NCBI GenBank assembly: GCA_964016885.1
Contig: OZ024743.1
Span: 359,600,001 to 359,664,000, forward strand
DNA from: Eledone cirrhosa
Lineage: Eukaryota
Direction: 5' to 3'
Length of the DNA stretch: 64,000 nucleotides
Notes under the pieces: generated by a model
Database searches by the model: none
Told to the model about the DNA's origin: nothing
What the model saw: the letters and a program-made list of their open reading frames with translations, nothing else
Shown: piece by piece, positions 1,393 to 63,239 of the stretch
How positions within the stretch are numbered: position 1 is the first letter of the stretch
How the letters are laid out: every line of letters begins with the position of its first letter
Position numbers and translations under genes: made by a program

Positions 1393-3760
1393 TGCATTTA
1401 TCTTGCTTTATGTTAATATGAGTTATCTGAGATATATGCCGAGTGTCTTCCTGACACCTAGGTCAAATAAATTCACAGTGTGCATTGGTAAGCCAGTTAA
1501 TACAACACATTGATTATAAAAAAAAATCGGTATACATATATACACATGTGCATATGCATATGTAAATACAAGGAGGGATATCAATCTTACAGAGATAGTG
1601 TTCTGCTCAATACGTGTGCAGTACCAGTCAAAACAATTTTTTGCACCTCCTGCAGAGAGGGTAAACCAGGAATCATTCATGTTCTGTTCCTTTCTTGATC
1701 ATTCCCAGTCCTCCAACAATCACTGGTATTGTAACGGCCTTGATGTGCCACATGTTCTCAATTTCAATAAGCAGATCTTTATATTTTCGTAGCTTGTCAA
1801 ATTCTATTGCCGTGATATTGTGATCACATGGGATGCTCATATCTATCAATAAACAGACCTTGTTATGTTGATCTTTTATAATGATGTCAGGTCTATTTGC
1901 TTTTATGGTCCTGTCAGTATGTACAGGAAAGTCCCAGATAATTGTTACTTTTTCTCCTTCAGTTACAGCCTCAAGGTGATGATTGTACCAGTTGTCTTCA
2001 GCTTTGATTTTGTAATGCCGACATATTACCCAGTGTAGATATTGGCCAACTCTGTCATGTCTATATTTATATTCTACTGGTGCTAAAACTTTACATCCAG
2101 AGACTAAGTGGTCCACTGTTTCAACCTCAGCATTGCAGAATCGGCACTTTGGGTTTATTTCGTTTCTCATCACATTGGCCTGGTAATTACGAGTCAATAA
2201 GCTTTGACCTTGGGCAGCTAAGATGAAGCTTTCACTCTCCGCCTTTAGCCATGAACTACGTAGCCACTGATGGGTGTGCTTTTGGTCAACATCAGCTTGT
2301 TTGCTACGGGTCACAAATTTGCCATGCAGAGGTTTCTGCTCCCAATTTGATGCTAATTGTCCTTGTCCTTTTGCTTTTGTCAGTGATTTTATGTGCCTAG
2401 CAGCATCAGTTACAACAGTTTCTTTAGTCTGTCCAGCCTGGGTATCAAGCAAGAGATCAGTAGCATATGTTTTGCTCTCCTTCAAGATGAAGCTTCTTCT
2501 CTCATGCTTTTCAACAAATTTCAGCATACAGTCGTTAGTTGTTTCAAGCTATTTGGCCAGTCCAATGATGGCGGTCTTGTAAGCAAGTTCAAATTGGATC
2601 AGGCCACGGCCTCCTTGAGTTCTAGGAAGGTAAAGACGATCCACATCTGGTTTTCGGTGGTGCATCCTATTACAGGTCAGTAGCTTACAGACTATGGTGT
2701 CGATTCTTTTGGTTTCACTCATATTCTAGTTCAACACACCGAAGCTATAAGTGACAACTCAATCAATAAAGATATTTCTGCTCTCATTACGTCAACTCCT
2801 TTTCGATTCTACTCCTCCAAATTGGTTTACCACGAATGTTCGACTTTTTTTTTGTGGTAAACAACTTGTTTCAATTACTCTAGCAGATGCGTAAATGATT
2901 TCATTTAACTCAGTAAGATCAGGTTCAAGTTATTCTATGATTTCTTTTGTCACAGAATTACCAATCATTGTTTGTTTTCTATTTTGGATTGTATTTGGGA
3001 GTTTTTGAAACGGTTCTCTATCATTTATACTAGAATGTCTTACTACTGCAAGCTCATTCAGTATTTTTTGCTTTAATTCCTTCATAGTGTCCCTGTGTTC
3101 TTCAGCAGATGTTTGGTTTTCAATTATTGTTTCTAAGTCCCTCTCCTCTCCTGGCTATTTTCAGCGGGTTGGGCTTCTCATTTCTACAAACCTATTTGTG
3201 ATTTGGTCAGATGTAGGTCTTTCAGCAAAGACTTGTGACTGGTTACTATCTCCAGGAGATTATTCAGTTCTTTCATCATTTATATTTATGTCAATCTCCA
3301 CAGCCTGCTTGATCGCAGTTAGTTCAGAGTCTGTGAGTCTATTATTTCTGAAGATATACCTCCTTACATTTACCAACTTATTTCCATCCATATCACATCT
3401 GCTAGCTTGATTCCGAGTTTTCCAGAGTTTGTAGAAGTTTAAAGTGTGTCTGTCTTGTGATGGCTTACCTAATGCATAGTAATATGCATATATTACTTCT
3501 TTATACTGTTCTCGGGCCGATTTCATCCGTTTAGGTTTTTCTTTTTGAGGTGGTTTGGGTGGTGGATCTGGAGGGCTCGAGTTGGGGGCAATCCCCGATC
3601 AAGTGACCATCCAGGTCCATAATTGGAGAAGAGTTTGTGCCAGAGGAGGAGTTTTCGAGCACAGGTTGGCACCTTCCTGAGGGACGCGCTTCCTGATTAT
3701 GAAAAGCGATTTGGTATTGTGTATTAATTTTTATTTGTTCATCTCGCAGTACATGCTTGC
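1392..3760 (-). mobile_element. Dong/R4-clade RLE non-LTR retrotransposon, internally deleted (no RT core)
   Basis: N-terminal QYKEVIYAYYYA (3260-3526) is joined near 2760 to the post-RT region (YSFGVLN, DRLYLPRTQGGRGL), then CCHC knuckle and RLE endonuclease; ends in (TAA)n. Confidence 0.8.
1673..2527 (-). pseudogene. C-terminal CCHC zinc knuckle plus restriction-like endonuclease of the R4/Dong element
   Basis: CRFCNAEVETVDHLVSGC, RHD, RPDIII..LLIDMSIP, KLRKYKDL motifs. Confidence 0.85.
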
Positions 3761-15151: not shown

Positions 15152-15946
15152 ATATACAATATATTAACAAATGGAAACTATATTTATAAAACCATATTTA
15201 TTTCATTATACATATTTCAAGAGCCAGCAAGGAAAACCATGGTGCACTTTCATCAGATAAAATATTAATATAGGTTAGTTTTATAAATAAATATTGACAT
15301 ACCCTGAAAAAATGCAACCATTCTGGTTGGAATTTCCTGGATAGTGGAGTTATTAGATATATATAGGTCTCAACTTTAATAATCTAACATACACATTTAA
15401 ACATTTAAACTACGGAGTGAATTGATAAATTATCAATTAAGCATTTAATCAAATTTATTAATTAAACATTAGATAAAATTCTTCAACTTATCTTTATTAT
15501 TGTTTAACCATGCTACGGTATTCATCCACGCTATATTTATTTCTTCGCCTCTTCTCTCAAAATTACGCTATTCTCTCTCACTAAAATATACTCAGGTTTT
15601 TTTCTCTTTCTTTCTTTCGTTTTTTCTCTTTTTTCTCTTTTTTCTCTTTCTTTCTTCTTTTCCCTATTCCAACGGCTTAATTTAAATATACTGTTATTTA
15701 AACCTTTCCGACACTAATTTGCATAATAAACCAACAATAAATCTAATAACTCCACTATCCAGGAGATTCCAACCAGAATGGTTGCATTTTTTCAGGGTAT
15801 GTCAATATTTATTTATAAAACTAACCTATATTATATTTTATCTGATGAAAGTGCAACATAGTTTGCCTTGGTGGCCCTTGAAATATGTATAATGAAATAA
15901 ATATGGTTTTATAAATATAGTTTCCATTTGTTAATATATTGTATAT
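15152..15946. repeat. Inverted pair of PLE-like pseudo-LTR ends (~205-bp arms), each with a hammerhead-like motif (15206-15260 minus, 15838-15892 plus)
   Basis: Arms 15152-15359 and 15741-15946 are near-identical reverse complements; TTAT-CTGATGA-stem II-GAAAT-ATGT-ATAA. Confidence 0.8.
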
Positions 15947-23140: not shown

Positions 23141-24178
23141 TCATGGGAGAAGACGGGAAGGAACTGCGTACCAGGAGGCCGCGTAGGTTGCGGACGCGCT
23201 TAAAAGCAGTAATGGGTGGGTTTGGAAAAAAGCGAGAAGTGACTGAGTCAGAAGAGAGGGTGCGGAAGGAACGGAGGGTATGTCACCGGAGTGGTAGTGC
23301 GATGGGGTGGTAGGTGAGAGGGAAAGGGACGCGGGTGTTGGCAAGGTGCGGGTGAGGTGAGAGTGGTGTGGTACGGACCGGTTACACGGGATTGGGTGAG
23401 AGCAGCTTGGATGAAGGTGGGCGGATACCCAGCTGGATGAAGCAGGAAGCCATGTGAAGGGAATGGGTTCCGAAATCGTCACCTGGCTACAGAGCCGACG
23501 CAGGCGAAGGAATTGGGAATAGGGTATGGAGTGTTTGGTGTAGGTTGGATGGGAGGAGGTGAAGTCGAGGTAAGAGTGGGAGTCTGTTGGTTTGTAGAAG
23601 ATGGAAGTAGAGAGGGTGTGGTGAGAGTGATTAATAGATAGAGATATATCTAGAAAAGCGACAGAAGAATCGGAGACGGCGGCGGTGAAAGTGAGAGCAG
23701 GATGGAAAGATAGGACAAAAGAAGGAAAACAATCGAGCTGTTCTCGTGATAGAAAGGTGGTGCCGATACAATAATCGATATGGCAACCGTATAGCTCAGG
23801 AGTAGGTCCAGCATACTGGGAGAAAATCTGGGCTTCGACGTAGCCAACAAACAAGTTGGCATATTTTGGACCCATTCTGGTTCCCATCGCTATCCCAGAG
23901 ACCTGTTGATAGAATTCACCCGAAAAGGAAAAGCCATTGAGGATCAGAACAAGCTCGGCCACACGGAGAAGAGTGGTAGTGCTGGGGTAAGGGGTAGGGC
24001 GTATGTCTAAAAAATGTTGGAGAGCGTGGAGGCCGTCATCATGAGGGATGACGGTATTGAGGGAGGTGATGTCCAGGGTAAAGAGAAGGCGAGAGGGACC
24101 AGAAGGGAAGGAGCAGGAGTTGAAGAGTCTAAGGGCATGATTTGTATCGTGGATGTGTGAGGGGAGATTGCCGACCAA
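23141..24178 (-). pseudogene. Penelope-like reverse transcriptase fragment
   Basis: RT motifs present; catalytic YIDD is mutated to HIDY. Confidence 0.85.
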
Positions 24179-25003
24179 CGGGGCAAGGATGGTGTCTAAA
24201 TATTAAGAAATGATCTCGGTGAGGCAGTTGTACTAAAAAACGATAGGACGGGCGGGATTATTTTGTTTGTGCATTTTGGGGAGGAAGTAGATGGTGGGTG
24301 TGCTAGAGGTGCGTTCAATAAGGTTGGTGGCTGTGGGGGTAGGAGAGAGGAGGAGATGAGCTCGTGGATGGTGGAGGACACGAGTTGTTGGTAACCAGGA
24401 GTGGGGTCGGAGGATAAAGAGCGGTAAAAATGGTATTGTGAAGCTGGTGGCGAGCCTCAGTCCTATAGAGATCAACGCTCCAAACCACCACTGGGCCACC
24501 TTTGGCAGCGGGTTTGATGACAATGTCATTGGGACGCTGAAGGTTGCGAAGAGCGGAGAGCTCAGTCCGCGTGATGTTAGCGCGACAAGAATGCTGGTGG
24601 AAACAGAACCGGTTCACAGTACGCCGGCAAGTATCGACAAAAGAGTCGAGGGTGCTGAACTGGCCAGAGCTCGGCGTCCAATGTGATTTCCGGCGACTGA
24701 GACGAGTGAAGTCATTCGTCTGTGTCGATGATGGCGTGTCGTGAAAAAAGCTTTCAGCTTTAATCGATGGAAGAACCCTTCAATATCGGCACGTGTGCGG
24801 AACTCGTTGCAGGTAAATGTGGTTGGTATAAAACGCAAACCACGAGGTTCAGAAAGTGGTAGGTCCTGGGGTATGGTGACTACAGTGCAGGGACGTGAGG
24901 GAGTAAAAGGGGCGGAGGTGGAGGGGATAAGGTGGTGGGGAGGGAGAAGGGGTTGAAGGTGACGGGATAGAGGGGTTAGGGTTGGAGGTGATAATATATA
25001 TAC

Positions 25004-25190: not shown

Positions 25191-26195
25191 ACTTTTATAC
25201 ATACTTTACTCACGGGTAAGAGAATAATACATGAACAGTAAAATAAGATGCATGCTATATTACAGATATCTTGGTTCAGTTGGTTTGTTTATTAATTAAT
25301 GAATAATAGTTGAACGTACGCAATGTCGGATTTATATTAACTTAATCTTCCAATTTTTTCTATTCTCCTTGTACATAACTACAAAAGCTAAATCGTATGA
25401 GTCTAGCCTAAGTAAAATCAAATTTGCTTTTATTGCTGTATTACAAGATATCCACGTACGAGTTGATGTAACAGGAAAGACAGCATACATTATCTATCTA
25501 TCTATCTCTGGATGGTATAGACGTTCTTCACATCGGCTCTTCGATTATTTGATATATTACGTGTTAACAGTAAGTGTTTGTCTGTATTCTTGCGTTATTG
25601 TGTCAATTAACCCCCTTGGCTGGGTCTTCGGACATTAGGGTTAATTTATTTCACCCCTTTTGGGGTGAAGTTTTTCATCCTAAAAATCTTCTGATTGTCT
25701 CTATGCTAGTGGTAATGGAAGCCATTACCACAGGTAACGATGACACGCTCACTAAACAAACTGAAGGAGAGCGGATAGCGGAGGCAACAAGCCTCTCTAC
25801 TGAAAGAATAAGGATTATTAGAAACATTGAAAAAATGGAGCCTAACCCTAATGAAAAAATGGGAAAAAAAATTGACTCGGAGAAATTGCCAACATTAATG
25901 GATGCCGTTTCGACTTTTCACGGTGCCACGCCCACCAGCAAAGGTGAAAGAGAAGTAGTAGCTGTGACTACAAGTCTCTCGGATACTGAAAATATAAGTG
26001 CACATTTTGAAAAAATGGAGTCTAACCCCAACGGGGAAAAAAATGTGAACGCATACACCAATATAAATAACACAAACACAACAAAATATGAAAATTGTAA
26101 CAACAAAAAACAAGAAAACAACCACATTTCGACAAATGTAAACAAAGAGGGGGCGAACAAAATGACGTTCGCTCAAACTACTCCCAAAAACCATT

Positions 26196-26946
26196 GTGTA
26201 TGAACCTATTGACATTTCGAACATGGCCCAGCAAATGGAAAATGCACGGAAGTATATAACTTTGGAGGAGAATGGTCTATTTTCTTTAAATTCTCCCCCA
26301 GAGCTAAACAAGGAAAATAGCTTAAAAACTATTATTTATAGGACAATATCCAACAAAACCCGTAAGCCAGTACAACTCACACAGACAGAGATTGAACTGG
26401 CTTTAAAAGATCATCTGAAAAACATTGTATTCATTCGGAAGGATAGACTCTACGGTAGTCTATCCATCCGAATGAAAGATAAATTGACGGCCGAAAAACA
26501 TTTCCTGGCCCCAATTGTGTCCCCTTATTTACCTTCTTCCCATTTATTTGGGAAGAAGAACGCAAAGATTGACCATACACAGTATCGATCCAGATATTGA
26601 TTTCTGGGCGGTACTGTGTGGCCTCTTCGACTTGAAAGAGGATGCAGTAATTTCGGTAGGTAAGTCTTCCAGCAATGTGCTTGGTGGAACTAGCCTGCAA
26701 GTTCTGGTGCAAATGCAGCCAGAACGAATTGCTAGGATCCCCGACCGCATATTGCTGGATGGGCTTGCCTACTTACACATCACAGTGGAGGGTAGACGAC
26801 CCGCTTGTTACCTCTGTGGTGGCAGAGGTCACCTGAGGGCTGCCTGTTCCCAAGCATACAATAAAACACCGATTTTGCCCACACCAACAACTACAACACT
26901 ACCAACACGACCTCCACCACCACCACCACCACAAAACAACAACTAA
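26196..26946 (+). pseudogene. Tx1-like ORF1 (gag-like CCHC), frameshifted
   Basis: ORFs 26196-26600 and 26515-26946 overlap in different frames; CCHC knuckle. Confidence 0.75.
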
Positions 26947-27636: not shown

Positions 27637-30600
27637 GTGCCTTTTCTCTTTACCACCAACATTGCTGTGTTGAGGGTAGGTTGTCTAAATGCGCGTGTCC
27701 TGGGCTCACCTTGGAAGCAAGCAATGTTTCTAAATGACCTCAGGTCACGATGTATAAATGTGATGGTTATTTGCGAGGCCCAGATCAGCAGTGTGCGACA
27801 GCTGGCCCCCACCTTTGATGACTTTGAGATGCACGGATCTCTCTCTCAGCCCGGATGTGTGGGTGGGGTTGTCGTTCTGCTGCAAAAACATCTGGGTCTC
27901 GCTACACAGACGGTACACTTGAAGCCGGAGGGTCGACTAGTGTTTCTGGACCTTGGCAGTGGTGAAGGTGGAGCTTTTAGGCTGGTCGCCGTCTACTGCC
28001 CTTTTGGGTCAATGTGGCCGGACTTCTTCCATCGTCTGGAGACTTTTAGTGGGGGACTGGAATGGTATCCTAGATGCACGTTGGGACTATGTAGGGGCAT
28101 GTCCTGATAGAGGGGCTTGTAACAGCCTCAAGGGGTTAATCGGCCAATTCGACCTGGCCGATAGATATCGACTAGATTTTCCGACTGTGCCAACCTGGAC
28201 TTGGACAAACCATAGCGGTCAATCTAGATCGTACCTAGATAGGTTCTTAGTTAGAAATAAGGATAGGGACCTTTTAAGTTGTCCAAAAATGCTCATGGTT
28301 GGCTATTAAGACCACAAGTTAGTGACCTCCATGGTCAACCTTGATAGAACGCATAGACAGGGACCCGGTTACTGGAAGCTCAACTTGTCCTTACCGGCAA
28401 GTAAAGCTTACAGGGACCGGATTAGTACTTTAGTTAAGGAGCGGTTGACGGGCGCAATCGTCAACAGCAGGTGGTGGGGCTCTCTCAAAAGAGAGATTAG
28501 AGATTGGACCAAAGCTGTTCGCTCGGCCCGCGTGACAGAAGCCAAAAGTGGGATTAGATCCACTATCCGGTCTTTGCGAGACCAGGATGGAGGGGAGATC
28601 CTTGAACCTAAGCAGATGTGCGGGGCCTTTCAAAGGCACTTTGCCCGATTGTTTGGAAGGGGCGAGGGGCCGGTTGGGGATGTGGACTTCGGTCCATACC
28701 TCGACGGCCTGCCGCCTCTTTCGGACGAGGAGGCGAAGTCCTGCGAGGGGCCGATCTCAGCTGCTGAAATAGGGGACGTGCTGAGCAAATGGGACAGATG
28801 CAAATCCCCGGGCCTCGATGGTCTTCCATACGAACTGTATTTAAGTATGATGGACTTGTTCTTCAATCTCCTCGAGGCTATCTACTGCAACTGGCAACAG
28901 AACGGGAGAATTCCCTCTTCTGTGACCAAGGGCGTAGTCTCGCTAGTGAAGAAGGACGAGAAGAAGGGGGATGAAATAAGTAATTTCAGGCCCATAACTC
29001 TGCTAAATGCAGAGTTAAAGATTTTGGCCAAGGTGTTAGCAAAGAGGTTGGCGCTTGTCGTGGGCAACCTGGTGGGTGATGTGCAGACATGCGCCACCCG
29101 TCCAGGTCCATTCACGACAACCTCCACCTCATGCGATACATTATAGAGAGGGTTGGGAACGAACCCGGCTTTGGTGGGGCCCTGATCAACTTGGATCAAT
29201 CTAAGGCGTTCGATAGGGTCGACCACCGTTACCTGAATGCGGTGCTAGTGGCGGCAGGTTTCGGACCCGTTTTCAGGGGCTGAATCACTGCCATGCACAG
29301 TAACCGCACCTACTCTAGGGTCAATGTGAACGGCTAACTCTCGGAGCCGTTCGAAATCACGCGGTCCATCCGACAGGGATCCCCTCTCTCCTCCCTTCTG
29401 TATGCATTGACCCTAGAACCACTGATGCGGAAGTTGGAGTTGTTACAGGCCATCCCTTTGGAACCGGCATTGCGGAAAGCGATGTCGGCCTACGCAGATG
29501 ACGTGACAGTAATGGTGTCAACCGCCTCGGAAATCGGGGTGATCGGCACCTTACTGGAGGAATACGAAAAGTTTACAGGGCTAAGATGAACCGGGACAAG
29601 TCAGTCGGTTTGCAACCCGGCAAGTGGTGGGGAAAACCGATGGCCTCCAACAGCGTCGTCGGACGTTGGACGGAGGGCCCGGTGAAGCTGCTCAGGGTCT
29701 GGTTCGGGCCAGACCTCCAGGTGGAGAAGAACTGGAGTGAGGTATCGAACAGGGTGTTTGCGCTGACGCAGAGGTGGGCTGAGTGCAAACTATCCCTGAA
29801 AGGTCGGGCGGAGGTGGCGAACGCTTATATAGCGTCCGTCATCTATTACCGGCTGACCGTCGTGCCTTGCCCAAGGGAAACGCTCACCAAAATGGAGCGC
29901 GCACTCTTCCAATTCCTTTGGAAGAAGCGGGCTCCTTTGGTGAGGAGTTCCATCTACTGTCAACACCCTTCGAAAGGAGGGCTGGGGATGCCGTGGCTGC
30001 TGATGCGTAAACACGCATTAAGGCTACGGCCGCGCCAGGTATTCCTCACCGGTCAACCGGCGTGGGCCCCGTTTGTGAGGCGAGCCTTTCCGAGACTCGT
30101 CTCGCTCACCGAGCTGCAGTCCTGGGTCAAGCAAAGACCGAGAAAACTGGGCGCCTGGCACACCGAGTGTGCCCAGGTGCTCACGGCTCTCTGGCAGGCG
30201 GACCCGGCTATCGGTGGAGACTCCACCTCGTCATTCTATAGAGGGCTGGTGGTAAGTAGGGGCGACGACGCCCTTGGAGAAGCCCTAGGCATGGAAGAAG
30301 ACCAACTGGCCAGCCTATTCGGGAGGACATTTGCCCCGGGACATATGGACAACTTCCAGAGGTCCCTGGCCTGGCAGTGCTACCGAGGGGCGCTGTCCGT
30401 TCGAGAAAAGCTCTACAGACACGGGCGCCCGAGTAGGAACCCCTCGAAAAAGATCTGTCCCAGATGCGTGCGCGACGACGAAACCGTCTCGCACGCATTG
30501 GTACACTGCTCGGGCGTTGCCGATCTGTAGGGCTATGTCGAACGACTGCTGTCACGGGTGGGACCAATCCGGTTGACCACCGAGTCCATTGTAACGATCA

Positions 30601-40193: not shown

Positions 40194-43100
40194 ATGTGTG
40201 TTTTTATTTTTCCTTTCCTTCTTCCTTGTCCAGCCTCAATTTCATATAGATTATATTTTTGTTTTTAAAATTCAACGCCAATAAATACACCAGGATTTTT
40301 TCATTCTGATGATTGAAAGCAAAATTTTTTTGCTTTTAAGAAACCACTGGTAAATGAAATAATTGCCTTATGTTGTTTATTACATAACAATTAAGCTCTG
40401 TTACCTACATAGAGCACTCTTTTTTCCTGGACTTTTCCGACGGAATTACTTCATTTATACAGCTCCAACCGGGATTGATTGAAGCATATTCTATATTACA
40501 TATACGATTGGCACTTTCCAGCCCGATTAGTTGAGCACTCTACAGTTTTCAGGAATTTAGCCAACTTACACCATGGACCTTTATGAATTGGATTATTCAA
40601 TCAAAAATATACCTACTCCTTCCAACACAACTTATACCAAAATGCTTATAGATAAAATCGTTAAAAGAATGAGATGGAAGGCAATGGTTTACGATGGACT
40701 ATTCAGTGCTGATACTAATGATTGTTTTGACATATAATCCCGTAAATATCCACCTAGAATTAAAGACATGGCCAACTTCGAATTAGACCTTGTTAATTTA
40801 ATTAGTGATATCAAATTTCGTAAGTACAATAATAATTTTCAAACTAAACTGTCTAACGATATTTCTAATTTTAAAAATGCTACAAACACCTTTGTTCTTT
40901 CCGATAAAACTAAAAATCTCTTTGAAGTTAATAGTATTTTGTATAACCAACTTTTAACTAATAGTATCACCAACAAATATCAATTAACTAATAATAATAC
41001 CTACAATACTATTAATAAAGAAGCTAAAGAACTAGCTAATTCTTTAAAAATAGACAACCGGATTGAAAGCCTAGCTAAGGGTAAAGCATATATTTCCCTT
41101 AAAGACCATAAATTAGACTTTACTAATCGACCTAGTTGTAGACTGATTAACCCGGCTAAATCCGAAGTTGGCCTTGCAAGTAAAAAAATCTTAAGAAAAA
41201 TAATTCTCCAAATTAGAACTAAGACTGACCTATCACAATGGTTAAATACTTCCTCTGTTATTTCTTGGTTTAATAATATACAAGGTAAAATTAAGTGTAG
41301 ATTTACCTAATTTGATATTGTTGATTTTTACCCCTCTATTACTGTTTCCTTATTAACTAATGCCTTAGAGTTTGCCAGACCCTTCATTAATATTTCTAAA
41401 TTAGAAGAAGACATTATATTTCATGCTAGAAAAACTTTACTCTTTACTAATGAAACTATTTGGGTTAAAAAGTCAAACCCTGAAAACTCTTTTGATGTTG
41501 CAATGTGTTCTTATGACAGTGCGGATGTGTGTGACTTAGTAGGATTATTCCTTCTCCACACCCTCAAAGAGAAATTTCCTTCCCATAATATCGGTTTCTC
41601 ATACCACCAACGGCCATAACCTTCATAAATTCCGTAAAGATTTAATCAATACTTTTGCTAATCTTAACATTAAAATTACTATAGATACGAACCTTACCAA
41701 TGCTAACTTTCTTGACATTAATCTTGATCTACTTACCGCCTCTTTTAAACCTTATAATAAACCTAATGAAAATCTTAGATATATACACAAAGAGTCTTGG
41801 CATCCCCCTATAGTTTTAAAAAATCTTATTCCCAACATTAGCCGTAGGATTTCTACCTTATCTTCGGCTCTAGACATTTTTATTAAAGTCGCCCCTTATT
41901 ATAATAAAGCCCCTAATAACAGCGGTTTTACAGAACAAATTTATTATTTACCTAAAATTAACCACAATAATAGGAAAAGGAAAATTATTTGGTTTACACC
42001 CACCCCTTCTCTCTAACTGTCAAAACTATGCAGGAAGGAAATTCCCTGACCTCTTAGATAAACATTTTCCTCCTAATCATAGATATTATAAGATATTTTA
42101 TAGAAATGTAGTTAAGATCAGTTACTCTTGTTGCCCATCAATGAAGTCTAAGATCACTAATTCAAATCGTACGAGAACAAATTAGGATGCAGTTGCAGGA
42201 AGCCGGATGAATGCCCATTACAGGGCAAATGTAACACCAAATCCGTTGTTTATGAGGCCAAAGTGACACCTTTAATCAACAACCAGCCAGCCAGGAGCAG
42301 GCGATATGTTGGCATGACCCAGGACAGGTTTAAAACCAGGTTTTATGCACATGTCGCTTCTTTTAAGCACTCCGATAAACGAACAGCAACGGCCCTCGCT
42401 AGTAAGGTGTGGGAATTCAGGATAAAAAGATCCCGCACTCTATCGATTGGTCTATTTTAGACCATTCGAGGGAGTACCAAAGGGGCACAAAGAATTGTTC
42501 TTTGTGTACCACGGAAAAATATAGGATTATGCTAAACTTGAAAGCCACTTCTGCTTGACTGAACTCAAAGACCGAGATCTTCAGATGTTGTCCTCATCTG
42601 AAATCACATCTGATCTGTAACTGGATTGACATTCCTACGAAAACTCAACCACCTTGAACTCCTTCTCTGCTCTTTAATTCCACTACGGTTTTTTTACTTG
42701 CTGAATCCACGTTCTGTACTCTCGTATTCTCTTTCTCCCTTATCTCCCCTTATATTTAAACCTTTTCCTATGTCATTTATTTCCCACCCCCCTACTTTCT
42801 GCCTTACCCTTCACATACCAAATTTTTTTTATTTTTAGATATTTATTTTTTTGTGTTGCGTATATATATGTATATGTGTATATATGTATATATATATATA
42901 TATGTATGTATATATATATATGTGTATGTATATGTGTGTGTATATGTATATGTGTATGTATATGTGTGTATGTATGTTTATATCTATCTGTATGTATATG
43001 TATATATATAATTGTATATTATATACTGCTGTATTTGTGCGTGTGTATATATATATATATATATATACGTGTGTGTATGTATGTGTGTATATATAGATTT

Positions 43101-57574: not shown

Positions 57575-57794
57575 GAATGAAGAAATAGGAGTTCAGAAAC
57601 AGCCGTCGGGGTCCCGACTCTTTTCCTATTACCCCCACTACTACCCAAAGTATCGAGTATTCTGGAGCGTTATGGTCCACCTGGTTCCTTACCTCACTTC
57701 CTTCCTTATCTCTATATATATTATATATATATTATATATATATTAATTCAAAATATTAACAAAAATAGACATTCGTGTGATCAAGTATATTTTA

Positions 57795-57850
57795 TTATAC
57801 ATATTCCAGAGGTACTGAGCTATCTTCAACAGTACGTCCTCATCAGATAA
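57795..57850 (-). ncRNA. Hammerhead-like motif at the presumed 3' end of Naiad E
   Basis: TTAT-CTGATGA-GGACGTACTG..CAGTACCTCT-GGAAT-ATGT-ATAA overlapping AATAAA; GAAA is mutated to GGAA. Confidence 0.6.
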
Positions 57851-58577
57851 AATAAGATGATGCATGACATACCCTGACTAAGTATATGGTTCAAATTCAG
57901 TCATGGCAGTGAATAAGATATGACAAAACTCAATATTTATATACCTTAAGATTGAGACATGAAAAAACTACATATTATACACTGGGTGCGTGTGAGAAAG
58001 CTTATAAAGATACATAATAATAAACAACTACTAATATAATACAAACTTACATAACTGTTAGAGATTCAATTAATTTAAATTATTGAAGAAAGAAGAAGTG
58101 AAAGACAGAGAGAGAAACAGATGAGGAAAAAGAGAGTTACTAGAAGTATAGAAATATCTTATGCACGAAAGCGAAAGAAAATTGATTAAGGAAAGAGAGA
58201 CGAGGATAAAATAATTTTTATAGTATAAAGCATAGGGAGGGAGATTTGTATTGTCGTGGATAAATAGCGTATAATCAGATGATGAAATATATATATATAT
58301 AAATAAATATATATTTGGGCATAGCTTTGTGAATGAATAATTTCGTATCGTTAAATTATCTAGAAATAATCAATCAATCAAAATATCAAATATATCTGGG
58401 TGTAGTTATATAAGAGTTTATTTTCGAGTCCTTAAGTTAATTAGAAATAGACTATTAATCAATTATATATATCCCAACGTATCCAGATGACCGTTAAATT
58501 TCGAATCTTTATGTTAATTCAAAATAGTGATTTAATCTAAAGGCATAATATTTGAGGCTATAAAATTTATCAGTATT

Positions 58578-59760
58578 TATATTATAGTATAATATCATAT
58601 TTAAAGTATTTACAAACATGAGAAAGAAGAGACTTAATATTTTCTTCATCTCGAAAGTAATCCCAATTAAATTATATTAAAAAAAATTTATATTAAAGAG
58701 ATTTTATATTAAAAAATAATCATTATATAATTTAGAAAGTAATTACAATTATAACTTTAAGAATTAAAAATTAAAAATTAGAATGCCCTTAAGTATCCAA
58801 AGGCCTTATAACTATACTTAAAAAGGATATTATTAAACTAGATATAAGCATTTGTCTAAATTTATACAAATAGTACATTGTTTAAAGTTTAAGACGATAT
58901 TAATCAGTTATATATAATATAATAAATAAATTACTGTTAAAATAAGGTCAATTATTATATTAAAAAAAAAACAATTATTCAACTAGGATCATCTAATACA
59001 TATATACTATAAATATACAAAACAAGCTTCATGAATCATAAAATCTAAAACACAGATTCAAAATAAATAAATGAATGGTTTGCGATCCTATAAGTGTCAA
59101 ATATATAAGCTATATAATTTAAAAATACAAGAACATTTTAAAGGATCTATATTATAGTATAATATCATATTAAAGTGTCTGCAAACATGAGAAAGAAAAG
59201 ACTTAAGATTTTCATCAACCCGAAGGTAATCCAAATTTAATTATATTAAAAAAAGTTAAATTAAAAACTAATCATTATATAATTTAGAAAATATTTAAAA
59301 ATTATAACACTAGAATGTCCTTAAGTATCCAAGGCACTTATAAATGTACCTGAATACATACAGAGTTTAAAGCTTAAGACGATATTAGTGAATTATATAC
59401 ATATAATTGTTTCTACTTTAGGCACAAGGCCAGCAATTACCCAGTGCATTACTGGTACTTTATTTTATCGACCCCATAAGGATGAAATACATATACATAT
59501 AATTATATACATATAATAAATATAATTATATACATATAATAAATAATAAATACAATTACTGTTAATAATGTTATAATTGAAGTTTTACATCAAGTTAAGG
59601 GGAAAAAGTTTGTCGACTAGGATCGTGTACGACACATATACAATAAATATATAAATCAAACATCTTGAATCTTAAAACAACATATTCAAAATAAATAAAT
59701 GAATGGTTTACGATTCCTTATAATTTTCAAACATATAAGCTATATATTTAAAACAAATAC
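58578..59760. repeat. Diverged ~570-bp tandem duplication in the presumed Naiad E 3' UTR (second copy holds a SINE fragment, 59405-59487)
   Basis: TATATTATAGTATAATATCATATT..CAAACATGAGAAAGAA at 58578 and 59148; TTCAAAATAAATAAATGAATGGTTT twice. Confidence 0.8.
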
Positions 59761-60353
59761 AATAAACCCCGAAAAAATTATTAAATGTATTTAAACAATC
59801 AAATGATATGCATACTCATCAAAAGATCATGTTAACAGCCTATATGTTTATATAGAACCCTTAATCCAACATTAATCATATCGTAAATAAATAAAAATTA
59901 TTAGAAGGTTTTATAATCTGTTATAGTGTCGTTTTACGCACTCAGTTGATAAGAAACGTCAAAAATTAAAACTTATTTATTCAATGTTTTTTCCTGACTT
60001 TTTGTGAGGCTTGGAATATAGAAGAAGCTTTATGCAGGCAATTTGAGAATAATTCACTTTTTTTGTTAATTAAATTATCATAATTAGTAATTATTAATAG
60101 GGTATCCATAGTACAAAGATTGCAGTTAGGTGATATTGAAGAATTCAAGTAGACTTGACCATTACACAGCTTTGACCAAGAAATCGAGTATTTTAAATTT
60201 TTGTCTTTTAATGACCATATAAGTTGTGATAAAGAGGTCGAAGATTTCCTATTAGGATTCGAAAAAGAATATTTGTGATTTGAAAATCTTAATTTAAATG
60301 TCGATGAAGTTGCACCAATTTAGTTGTATGTGATGTTATTTGCTTTTACGGTG

Positions 60354-60530
60354 GATTGGCAGTATCAGTAGAGAGTCGGACGCCATGCTTTCCAGCATAG
60401 TTACGTCCCTTTACGGTCTGAGTTCAAATCCCGCCGAGGTTAACTTTGCCTTTCAACCTTACGGGGTCGATAAAATAAAGTACCAGTAATGTACTGGGTA
60501 ATTGCTGGCCTTGTGCCAAAAGTAGAAACA
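60354..60530 (+). mobile_element. Young tRNA-SINE inserted into the Naiad E GIY-YIG
   Basis: 19-bp direct repeat GTTATTTGCTTTTACGGTG at 60335-60353 and 60531-60549. Confidence 0.92.
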
Positions 60531-61575
60531 GTTATTTGCTTTTACGGTGCAGATTGCTATCCAGACAATTATTTTGCAGAGGGCAATTTGATCTATTTCT
60601 ACAATTACATTTCGATTTATTGTTATTACTATAAATTGAACAATTGACATTAACATTGCTAGTATTTGAAGTGTTCTAATGATAGTGCTTAGATTAATGT
60701 TATTGTTATTCCTAGTATTAATATTGCTAGTGTTATTATATTCATTATCCCTAATTGTTTGTTAGTTTTGGTTATGTTTTAGAATTCTACTATTTATTTT
60801 TGCAATGTTCTGGGCCATATTCATAGTTGTAGAATAAGAAAGCTTAATTGTATGTCTGTTAAATATGGAACGGTATTTATGGGAAGCATTTATCTAAAGC
60901 TTTAAAGAATAGATTTGAGAGTGGTGTTTTGATTGCTACAGATGCGGGAGGATCAAACCATATAACTGATTTAGTTCTGACTTTTTCCCCCGATGTATTC
61001 ACGGTATTGGTGTTTGTATTATAATTTTTAGAATCTAGTTTATTTATGTTAGTCTTATTTTTACCCGGATTATAATTCAAATTATTATTATCTATATATT
61101 CAATATTATTTTTATAACCTGCCTTACGTAGCGCGTCATTATAATATCCTGCTTTTTCATCAAATATGGATTTATTAGCGGATATTCTAGTTATGGGTTT
61201 CTGTAAACTATTGACTATTGCATTTTTCACGGATTTAGGGTGATTAGAGTAATAGCTAACGTAATTTAAGTTTTCATTGGGCTTATGGAAAGGGTTATAA
61301 AATGCTGAGTTTAAGTTAAGGGTGACGTCAAGGAAATTAACTATTTTGGTGCTACTTTCAACTTCTAATTTACGGTCGTAATTTTTAAAGAATTCAATTA
61401 TAGTTTTCTTAACCCTATTTAGTTCTGTATTGCTATGCTTGACAATCGTAAATAAAATATATATATTGCTATTTCAGAGCTCCAATTCTAATTTTTAATT
61501 TCTGCCTGACCAACAACCGCTCTGCATAATCAGCTCCTGATTATTTACTAGATTTCTATAAGAATATAACACCAG

Positions 61576-61670
61576 TGATCTCGGTAGACAGGAGGGTTAG
61601 TTGGCCTAGATAAGCTTCAACCAAAGCGAAACAAGACTTGTCGGCTTATCTCCCCTGTTTGCTGAGATCA
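61576..61670 (+). ncRNA. Type I hammerhead, unit 1 (core mutated to UAGAUAA)
   Basis: GGCC-TAGATAA-GCTT(CAACCA)AAGC-GAAAC-AAGACTT-GTC-GGCT. Confidence 0.7.
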
Positions 61671-61893
61671 AAGTAAGTGAATTTGTCACTACTTTAAAAC
61701 AATAGTTTACGGTCTTCAAAATGCTTTTAATTAAGCATAAAGTGTATTGCAAAATACATTATATATACATCCATATATATATATTGCTATTTCAGAGCTC
61801 CAATTCTAATTTTTAATTTCTGCCTGACCAACAACCGCTCTGCATAATCAGCTCCTGATTATTTACTAGATTTCTATAAGAATATAACACCAG

Positions 61894-61988
61894 TGATCTC
61901 GGTAGACAGGAGGGGTAGTTGGCCTTGATAAGCTTCAACCAAAGCGAAACAAGACTTGTCGGCTTATCTCCCCTGTTTGCTGAGATCA
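61894..61988 (+). ncRNA. Type I hammerhead ribozyme, U3-A8 core variant, unit 2 (predicted cleavage after 61960)
   Basis: GGCC-TTGATAA-GCTT(CAACCA)AAGC-GAAAC-AAGACTT-GTC-GGCT; outer stem I TGATCTCGGTAGACAGG/CCTGTTTGCTGAGATCA. Confidence 0.85.
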
Positions 61989-62211
61989 AAGTAAGTGAAT
62001 TTGTCACTACTTTAAAACAATAGCTTACGGTCTTCAAAATGCTTTTAATTAAGCATAAAGTGTATTGCAAAATACATTATATATACATCCATATATATAT
62101 ATTGCTATTTCAGAGCTCCAATTCTAATTTTTAATTTCTGCCTGACCAACAACCGCTCTGCATAATCAGCTCCTGATTATTTACTAGATTTCTATAAGAA
62201 TATAACACCAG

Positions 62212-62306
62212 TGATCTCGGTAGACAGGAGGGGTAGTTGGCCTTGATAAGCTTCAACCAAAGCGAAACAAGACTTGTCGGCTTATCTCCCCTGTTTGCTG
62301 AGATCA
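62212..62306 (+). ncRNA. Type I hammerhead ribozyme, U3-A8 core variant, unit 3 (predicted cleavage after 62278)
   Basis: Identical to unit 2. Confidence 0.85.
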
Positions 62307-62529
62307 AAGTAAGTGAATTTGTCACTACTTTAAAACAATAGCTTACGGTCTTCAAAATGCTTTTAATTAAGCATAAAGTGTATTGCAAAATACATTATAT
62401 ATACATCCATATATATATATTGCTATTTCAGAGCTCCAATTCTAATTTTTAATTTCTGCCTGACCAACAACCGCTCTGCATAATCAGCTCCTGATTATTT
62501 ACTAGATTTCTATAAGAATATAACACCAG

Positions 62530-62624
62530 TGATCTCGGTAGACAGGAGGGGTAGTTGGCCTTGATAAGCTTCAACCAAAGCGAAACAAGACTTATCGGCT
62601 TATCTCCCCTGTTTGCTGAGATCA
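62530..62624 (+). ncRNA. Type I hammerhead, unit 4 (AUC triplet, C-A mismatch in stem III)
   Basis: GAAAC-AAGACTT-ATC-GGCT. Confidence 0.7.
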
Positions 62625-62796
62625 AAGTAAGTGAATTTGTCACTACTTTAAAACAATAGCTTATGGTCTTCAAAATGCTTTTAATTAAGCATAAAGTGTA
62701 TTGCAAAATACATTATATATACATCCATATATATATATATATATATAATATAATATATAAGATCAAAAGATGGTTAAATGAGTTCCATGTATTTTA

Positions 62797-62856
62797 TTAT
62801 GCGCATTTCAAAAACAAATATCATCATGCAATAACATTTGTGTTTCCATCAGATAA
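62797..62856 (-). ncRNA. Degenerate pseudo-LTR hammerhead-like motif
   Basis: TTAT-CTGATGG-long stem II-GAAAT-GCGC-ATAA overlapping AATAAA; its tail matches the 18455-18512 hairpin arm. Confidence 0.5.
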
Positions 62857-62949
62857 AATAGGAGGACATGATATGAAGGTTAAAAACACTTGTGGATAGT
62901 GCAGTTTTAAATCAACATATCTTATACGTTGATTTAAAACTGCACTATG

Positions 62950-63090: not shown

Positions 63091-63239
63091 CAAAAATTAG
63101 GTATTAGGATTGGTGCTCTGAAATAGCGATGTAAATGTGAATGTATGTATAGTATATTTGGCAATATACCGTATGTTTAATTAAAAACATATATATATAT
63201 ATATATATATATAAATAATGGCTGACTGAATACGCAATT

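Follow-up and report, generated by a model that had tools for sequence, protein, structure and literature searches.

The array of 318-bp units in the window, by which we mean the whole 64,000-nucleotide stretch of Eledone cirrhosa DNA analysed here, is best read as a non-autonomous retroelement bearing a hammerhead ribozyme (HHR), i.e. a non-LTR retrozyme, that would be copied by a Penelope-like reverse transcriptase (RT)/GIY-YIG protein with a circle as template (probability about 0.6). The more general statement, that a retrozyme-type element is moved by a Penelope-like element (PLE), we consider very likely. The array is part of a young, dispersed, non-coding family, and the class proposed by the first-pass annotation was borne out by unit size, tandem arrangement, a type I HHR with covarying helices, the lack of coding capacity and the presence at many loci. 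Retrozymes of this class, including one from a mollusc, and the PLE hypothesis have been published before; what is added here is how the copies insert, namely with a two-start-site footprint.

Results

The tandem array and its surroundings

TRF reported a period of 318 bp with 4.0 copies at 99% for the array (Table 1), and the differences among the four units were confined to 5 columns, in agreement with the near-identical units of constant period described in the first-pass annotation. Its statement that there is no credible ORF also held, the longest frame being an 87-aa stop-to-stop frame. The window copy is one-armed, and its 3' end lies at unit position ~318 (class B, defined below) and runs into (TA)n. 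All contigs from sequencing runs that span 61608 carried T at this position. The inner units 2 and 3 have the same sequence, and a C at unit position 116, present in every unit of the array, is absent from all other mapped loci; this pattern fits either a circle route or a local-duplication route. The 2-kb bins around the array have 32% GC, in a genome of 3.0 Gb that is TA-rich.

The array abuts a 5'-truncated PLE (PLE-A) on its left and the TA tract of another HHR-bearing terminus on its right (Table 1), and this stretch consists of nested TA-targeting elements. The start of the unit was considered as a SINE or LINE tail and rejected, the match at 63091-63190 being an older copy of the repeat itself. 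Elsewhere in the window, further PLE-type HHR motifs were found at 15256 (-) and 15842 (+), which form an inverted pair, and at 40306 (+); HHR-like motifs at ~57286 (+) and ~63316 (+) were recognised by eye only. Other-family PLE copies and LINE-like RT fragments occupy 37.8-42.4 kb, 44.9-45.3 kb, 47.3-49.6 kb, 23141-24202 (-), 1673-2548 (-) and 28310-30530 (+), and window frames of at least 200 aa look like parts of mobile elements or simple repeats, with the exception of 25574-26203.

Table 1. Features of the array and of its neighbours (window coordinates).
Feature	Position	Strand	Basis or remark
One-armed insertion, tandem 318-bp units x 4.0	61457..62738	+	TRF, unit comparison, arm mapping
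Unit 1	61457..61774	+	HHR impaired in its core by U4>A (61608); two more private changes, 61597 and 61706
Unit 2	61775..62092	+	HHR intact; core UUGAUAA starts at 61925, within stem I limits 61894-61988; cleavage predicted 3' of 61960
Unit 3	62093..62410	+	Same sequence as unit 2; predicted cleavage after 62278
Unit 4	62411..62728	+	G>A at 62594 gives AUC triplet and breaks C15.2-G16.2 pair
Candidate circle or 318-nt monomer	61961..62278	+	Proposed from unit comparison and folding
Tail segment between the two putative start sites of reverse transcription (unit positions 1-36/41, unit 2 as example)	61775..61815	+	Arm ends over 67 loci
PLE-A, older 5'-truncated Hydra-type PLE, left neighbour outside the element	57700..61456 (left limit approximate)	-	Motifs, frames
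PLE-A, RT thumb	60877-61450	-	
PLE-A, GIY-YIG	~59981-60675	-	Split by SINE
PLE-A, own different HHR	57846	-	
Right neighbour, 3' terminus of another TA-targeting element	62745..62900	-	PLE-type HHR, core damaged at 62852
Relic (~80%) of older subfamily of the same repeat, beside SINE	63091..63190	-	

A hammerhead ribozyme conserved by compensatory changes

On the + strand, each unit carries a long interrupted stem I, the core, a 4-bp stem II with the loop CAACCA, GAAA, the sequence ACAAG-A-CTTGT and GUC. The parts listed by the first-pass annotation (stem II GCTT/AAGC, GAAAC, the stem III sequence and GUC, with AUC in unit 4) were all present, its predicted cleavage positions 61960 and 62278 were correct, and the outer stem I contains the four G-U pairs that it had described, the fold reaching z -6.1 on the + strand and z -2.2 on the - strand. 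Two corrections apply. The core reads UUGAUAA and not CUGAUGA, i.e. it is a U3-A8 variant and not C3-G8, and the full HHR attributed to every unit is present in the consecutive units 2 and 3 and impaired in unit 1 (U4>A, 61608) and unit 4 (15.2-16.2 pair broken, 62594). Because units 2 and 3 are the ones with an intact HHR, 61961-62278 would be the only monomer that double cleavage could release from the window array. At gathering level Rfam gave no match in the window, and the HH9 model scored this U3-A8 variant in units 2 and 3 with 27 bits (E 3.7e-4), below the cut-off of 52.

Covariation was analysed in 20 homologous HHRs, hand-picked to span the subfamilies and ranging from 96% down to about 66% identity. 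In this set 91.3% of the cells were paired versus 81.3% after shuffling (0/500); the rows are related and the structure was taken from the window copy, so that 0/500 is strong but not a probability. Two-sided changes occurred in 19 of 34 pairs, and slid controls of the alignment gave 40-50%. The pair 3-8 was UA in 18 and CG in 2 of the 20 homologues and was never mismatched. Three of the six scored subfamily-diagnostic columns are changes in stem I from G-U to A-U, and compensatory changes keep the ribozyme down to 66-74% identity. These sequence comparisons argue strongly for selection on the ribozyme fold.

When the circular monomer was folded, as the first-pass annotation had suggested, the HHR was not recovered: the core was predicted to be trapped in another pairing and the probability of stem III was ~0. 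Stem III loops are often self-complementary, and in the window copy stem III has no predicted stability as a hairpin and -8.7 kcal/mol as a self-dimer. As folding predicts no stem III in the monomer, the predicted cleavage would probably need a double hammerhead or a protein, and double-hammerhead cleavage as described for axolotl retrozymes (PMC7229834) would be the likely mode here.

A young family dispersed across the genome

A 28-mer of the core region had 202 exact matches in the genome versus 0 for its reversed control, an excess that chance does not account for. A generic HHR pattern matched 12,025 times versus 213 times for the control, and not all of these matches belong to the retrozyme family; among the first 100 listed, 94 had UUGAUAA or CUGAUGA and 6 were mixed as judged by eye, 5 of the latter from one local repeat. 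Mapping yielded 67 insertion loci and not a single one, the outcome that the first-pass annotation had named as speaking against its proposal; 46 of the 67 are all the loci behind the first 100 of the 202 exact 28-mer matches in genome order. The family thus mapped (the L033 row was left out of its alignment) has many dispersed copies and no LTR architecture in a check that covered features other than PBS and PPT. Relatives of the unit were also present in contigs from runs under four organism codes, with one head-to-tail joint among these four runs. High depth on the unit in X1 was considered as a sign of expression and rejected, as a rough estimate fits DNA at 10-20x.

Some loci contain much longer arrays. 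At L093 (C1:293.635-293.643 Mb) the young family forms an array of 26 units in which variants recur, and at C14:23.499-23.508 Mb an older subfamily forms one of about 29 units; both may be source loci or local amplifications. Other HHR-bearing repeats were encountered as well. A 310-bp tandem family (L018:2400-3318, L096:343-1663 and L165:1-2274) has a type I HHR with a CUGAUGA core and a different sequence; it overlaps the unit mainly in the first ~83 nt of the latter (80%) and at L018 adjoins a young insertion. In the genome-wide pattern list, a very frequent HHR family with the core CUGAUGA-AGGGUGAUACCCA-GAAAC is unrelated to the unit, and no nearby PLE frame was seen for it in the loci fetched. 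Finally, at L091:2400-6570 the two arms of a retrozyme insertion enclose a LINE that has an open frame of 1,040 aa, and pieces of the same LINE family abut another insertion at L211.

Inverted arms with two fixed 3' ends

Two head-to-head arms were present in 50 of the 67 loci and in 35 of the 46 genome-order loci. With the HHR strand as sense, the ends fell into two classes, B at unit position 313-318 and T at 32-43 (one end at L146 was B by script and T on inspection). One B and one T end were combined in 42 of the 50 two-armed insertions (BB 1, TT 0, end lost in 7) and in 30 of the 35 from the genome-order subset. In such B/T pairs the 3' terminus of one arm is at unit position ~318 and that of the other at ~36-41; a 30-40-bp tail is present at one end only in 42/50 two-armed loci and at both ends in none. 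(TA)n followed 102 of 109 ends. The two arms agreed at subfamily columns in 177 of 181 comparisons versus 116 expected, and pieces diverged by 1.3% inside one arm, by 1.6% when taken from the two arms and by 2.1% when taken from different loci (L093 excluded). Because the arms share subfamily letters and diverge less than loci do, both would derive from one template type in one event.

PLE insertions are described as an inverted 5'-truncated copy with a 30-40-bp tail at one end and (TA)n targets (PMC8557442), and a PLE protein was shown to nick the two strands and to extend each of them from one of two internal start sites, by which the tail is delimited (PMC11167929). Judged from the genomic copies, the retrozyme footprint is this two-start-site 'tail' signature of PLEs. 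Autonomous PLEs of this genome show it too: among two-armed insertions of the family PLE-N whose ends could both be read, 11/11 had one short and one 48-nt-tailed end, and in PLE-A the ends form two classes separated by ~95 nt. Taken as genomic evidence, these data point to PLE-type integration of the retrozyme copies.

Arm lengths and 5' ends

Either start site is located 130-170 nt downstream of the predicted cleavage site, and a cleaved linear monomer could therefore give arms of at most this length. The predicted cleavage site was passed by 99 of 108 arms, and no arm stopped within 8 nt of it; since the loci were picked by a match to the unit or core, one or more arms at each locus were bound to pass it, which does not apply to the partner arm. 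More than one unit was spanned by 60/108 arms and more than two units by 21/108 (L093 excluded from these counts). The 5' ends at two-armed loci (L091 and L093 excluded) had no dominant stop, with at most 13/91 in any 17-nt window (P 0.08) and 2/91 near the predicted cleavage site. In PLE-N, the 5' ends of 29 of 37 arms cluster in a stretch of 17 nt immediately downstream of a TATAAAA box, which we read as marking the transcription start, and the arms read through the element's own HHR. A template that has no 5' end explains the spread of the retrozyme arm ends best. Because the arms pass the HHR site and, unlike those of PLE-N, have no common 5' stop, a circular template is favoured, and we consider it probable.

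Local duplication is evident at L093 and at L054, where a short (~12-bp) deletion is common to 3 of the 5 units in the + arm, which one circle cannot give unless duplication followed. The PLE-N loci L217-L246 are mostly fold-backs of ~200-280 bp with one end site downstream of the TATA box and upstream of the HHR. These fold-backs lend in vivo support to an internal start on RNA that has not been cleaved.

PLE neighbours and a candidate partner

PLE-A was identified as a PLE because it has the motifs of the Hydra clade given in PMC8557442, section 11 (RWK-like, DKT and CxCX5C); Pfam had no match in three fragments of it or in its 750-aa frame. We rejected it as a co-inserted partner of the array: it is older (94-95% to its nearest kin and one SINE insertion), its HHR is unrelated, its tail is ~95 nt, and PLE-A and the array both end in the short class. 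Terminal matches to PLE-A number at least 3,716 genome-wide, and it is joined to the retrozyme at one locus, PLE-B at one or two.

In the 735-aa frame of PLE-N, GIY-YIG scored above and RVT_1 below the Pfam cut-off, and because of its DKG and CX4CxxC motifs we read PLE-N as Neptune/Nematis-like. The named homologues of the host-genome PLE are bivalve proteins or come from bivalve-symbiont assemblies. PLE-N has 1,123 exact 34-mer matches in the genome; it forms direct junctions with young retrozyme arms at 3 of the 67 loci (L017, L046/L215 and L146/L213) and with an older retrozyme subfamily at L111. Divergence from the column majority was 1.45% for PLE-N and 0.75% for the retrozyme, so that their ages overlap; both sets are biased to young copies. 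No homology of the unit to PLE-N or PLE-A was detected, and the B/T rule is not clean across the retrozyme-PLE-N junctions (B+T at L046, T+T at L111). The 30 PLE-N loci fetched contained no copy of the young family, and one insertion was near an older subfamily. When a natural junction served as query for further PLE-N chimeras, a single additional adjacency emerged from the 40 candidates scored, and there the tails of the two elements meet across TA, which indicates nesting. Together with L015, this makes two cases of TA nesting beside PLE-N-type termini; such nesting inflates adjacency and therefore weakens the argument for PLE-N as partner. The junction at L046 could be nesting and the other PLE-N junctions deletions. 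We regard PLE-N as a tentative partner of the retrozyme, leaning slightly against it. PLE-N also occurs in tandem, with four copies of period ~4.19 kb that end in a retrozyme arm at L213 (C1:97,368,513-97,381,108) and a ~4.26-kb pair at C1:174.39 Mb.

Discussion

The window family resembles the non-LTR retrozymes of coral, Mytilus and axolotl, which are low-GC tandem repeats of 150-450 bp with a type I HHR, no ORF and many copies (PMC7229834). It shares with them the size class, the low GC content, the type I HHR, the non-coding nature and the multicopy state, and differs in the U3-A8 core of most of its subfamilies; RNA has been shown for those retrozymes. Molluscan retrozymes in that study measure 350-390 bp, cleavage in axolotl is dimer-dependent and PLEs were proposed as mobilisers, and in the available main text there is no mention of inverted arms, tails or TA targets, nor of octopus, cephalopod or squid. 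A 2026 preprint argued for PLEs as retrozyme partners from co-occurrence and pLTR homology in Xenopus, favoured local amplification and reported that 8/9 predicted retrozymes failed to cleave. A PLE partner is concluded there as here, in our case from the insertion footprint; unlike in the Xenopus retrozymes, no pLTR homology was found in the window family, and the text of the preprint has no molluscs, tails or target sites.

As in Poseidon PAc (PMC11167929) and the Naiad/Hydra PLEs (PMC8557442), there is an inverted 5'-truncated copy with one 30-40-bp tail, targets are (TA)n or AT-rich, and two internal starts serve to extend both strands, whereas the retrozyme has no ORF, a 318-bp unit and multi-unit arms that lack a 5' run-off point. 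The minimal HHRs of PLEs show U3-A8 covariation in Schistosoma and have a palindromic stem III, for which a dimer model was put forward with circles proposed as template (PMC4209133). U3-A8 and the palindromic stem III are shared by the window HHR, which differs in its 4-bp stem II, 6-nt loop and long interrupted stem I and is closer in shape to canonical metazoan HHRs. We found no description in the literature of a retrozyme or hammerhead family in octopus or any cephalopod, or of a two-start-site insertion footprint for retrozymes, although subscription papers, Repbase and supplements may hold one.

The PLE could also have used an uncleaved linear multimer transcribed from an existing array, with longer arrays arising by unequal crossing-over; HHR cleavage would then be weak or belong to a different stage, and any circles would not be intermediates. 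We consider this unlikely, but it accords with the finding that uncleaved RNA is the main PLE substrate and HHR cleavage dispensable in vitro (PMC11167929), with the PLE-N arms that pass their own HHR, with the local duplications at L054 (deletion in three units) and L093 (26 units), with the identical inner units and the private C of the window array, and with the local amplification favoured by the 2026 preprint. A linear RNA with a fixed start should, however, pile up 5' ends as in PLE-N, and no such accumulation was seen. Arms of more than one unit are common, also on both sides of single insertions, subfamily letters were mixed in just 7/177 arm-by-column tests, and the compensatory conservation of the ribozyme likewise speaks against this reading.

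It is improbable that the unit is the pLTR of a yet-unfound autonomous PLE and the copies its short truncated insertions. Ends, tail and TA targeting are indeed as in PLE termini, Xenopus retrozymes resemble pLTRs (2026 preprint), and 40 of 1,187 candidates were scored; yet in the 67 loci no arm runs from the unit into shared ORF-bearing sequence, head-to-tail junctions are unit-to-unit, the unit never flanks an RT and GIY-YIG ORF as its own terminus, and each adjoining PLE ends in an HHR terminus of its own that is unrelated to the unit. The score below Rfam gathering would suit a minisatellite at the DNA level, a SINE-like repeat mobilised by a LINE, or an assembly artefact, resembling an HHR by chance; this explanation is largely refuted, and we hold it to be very improbable, given the strand-specific covariation that includes the 3-8 core pair, the two fixed 3' ends, one per arm, the real substitutions between units and the relatives in runs of four organism codes.

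In the preferred reading of a PLE-copied retrozyme with a circular template, the array would be transcribed from the + strand, and adjacent hammerheads, whose structure is backed by covariation and whose activity is predicted, would pair via the palindromic stem III and cut after 61960 and 62278 to give a 318-nt monomer. By analogy with other animals, the monomer would be ligated to a circle. A PLE protein would then, as the genomic footprint suggests, nick both strands of a (TA)n tract and reverse transcribe from two fixed internal sites, one for each strand and separated by ~30-40 nt. Each cDNA would circle the template past the HHR site, in some cases over several units, and the two would join head to head, a course for which the geometry is seen in the insertions and the circle is the presumed template. 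Some arrays, on the evidence of two loci, would later have grown by local duplication. The window would hold a one-armed product with two still-intact ribozymes. The most specific version, in which a PLE protein reverse transcribes a ribozyme-made circle in trans from two fixed start sites with PLE-N as the enzyme source, is doubtful.

Within one homologous family of this genome, which has thousands of hammerhead motifs, the C3-G8 core pair switches to U3-A8. The mover of animal retrozymes and the circle as template were proposed in 2014 and 2020 and argued from co-occurrence in the 2026 preprint; the young family defines an RNA, two start sites, a target and a candidate partner, which makes the question of mobilisation directly testable. 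If the most specific version given above is true, these insertions would document the retrozyme life cycle directly in the genome and would represent a natural system of rolling-circle, target-primed integration for a non-coding circle of 318 nt.
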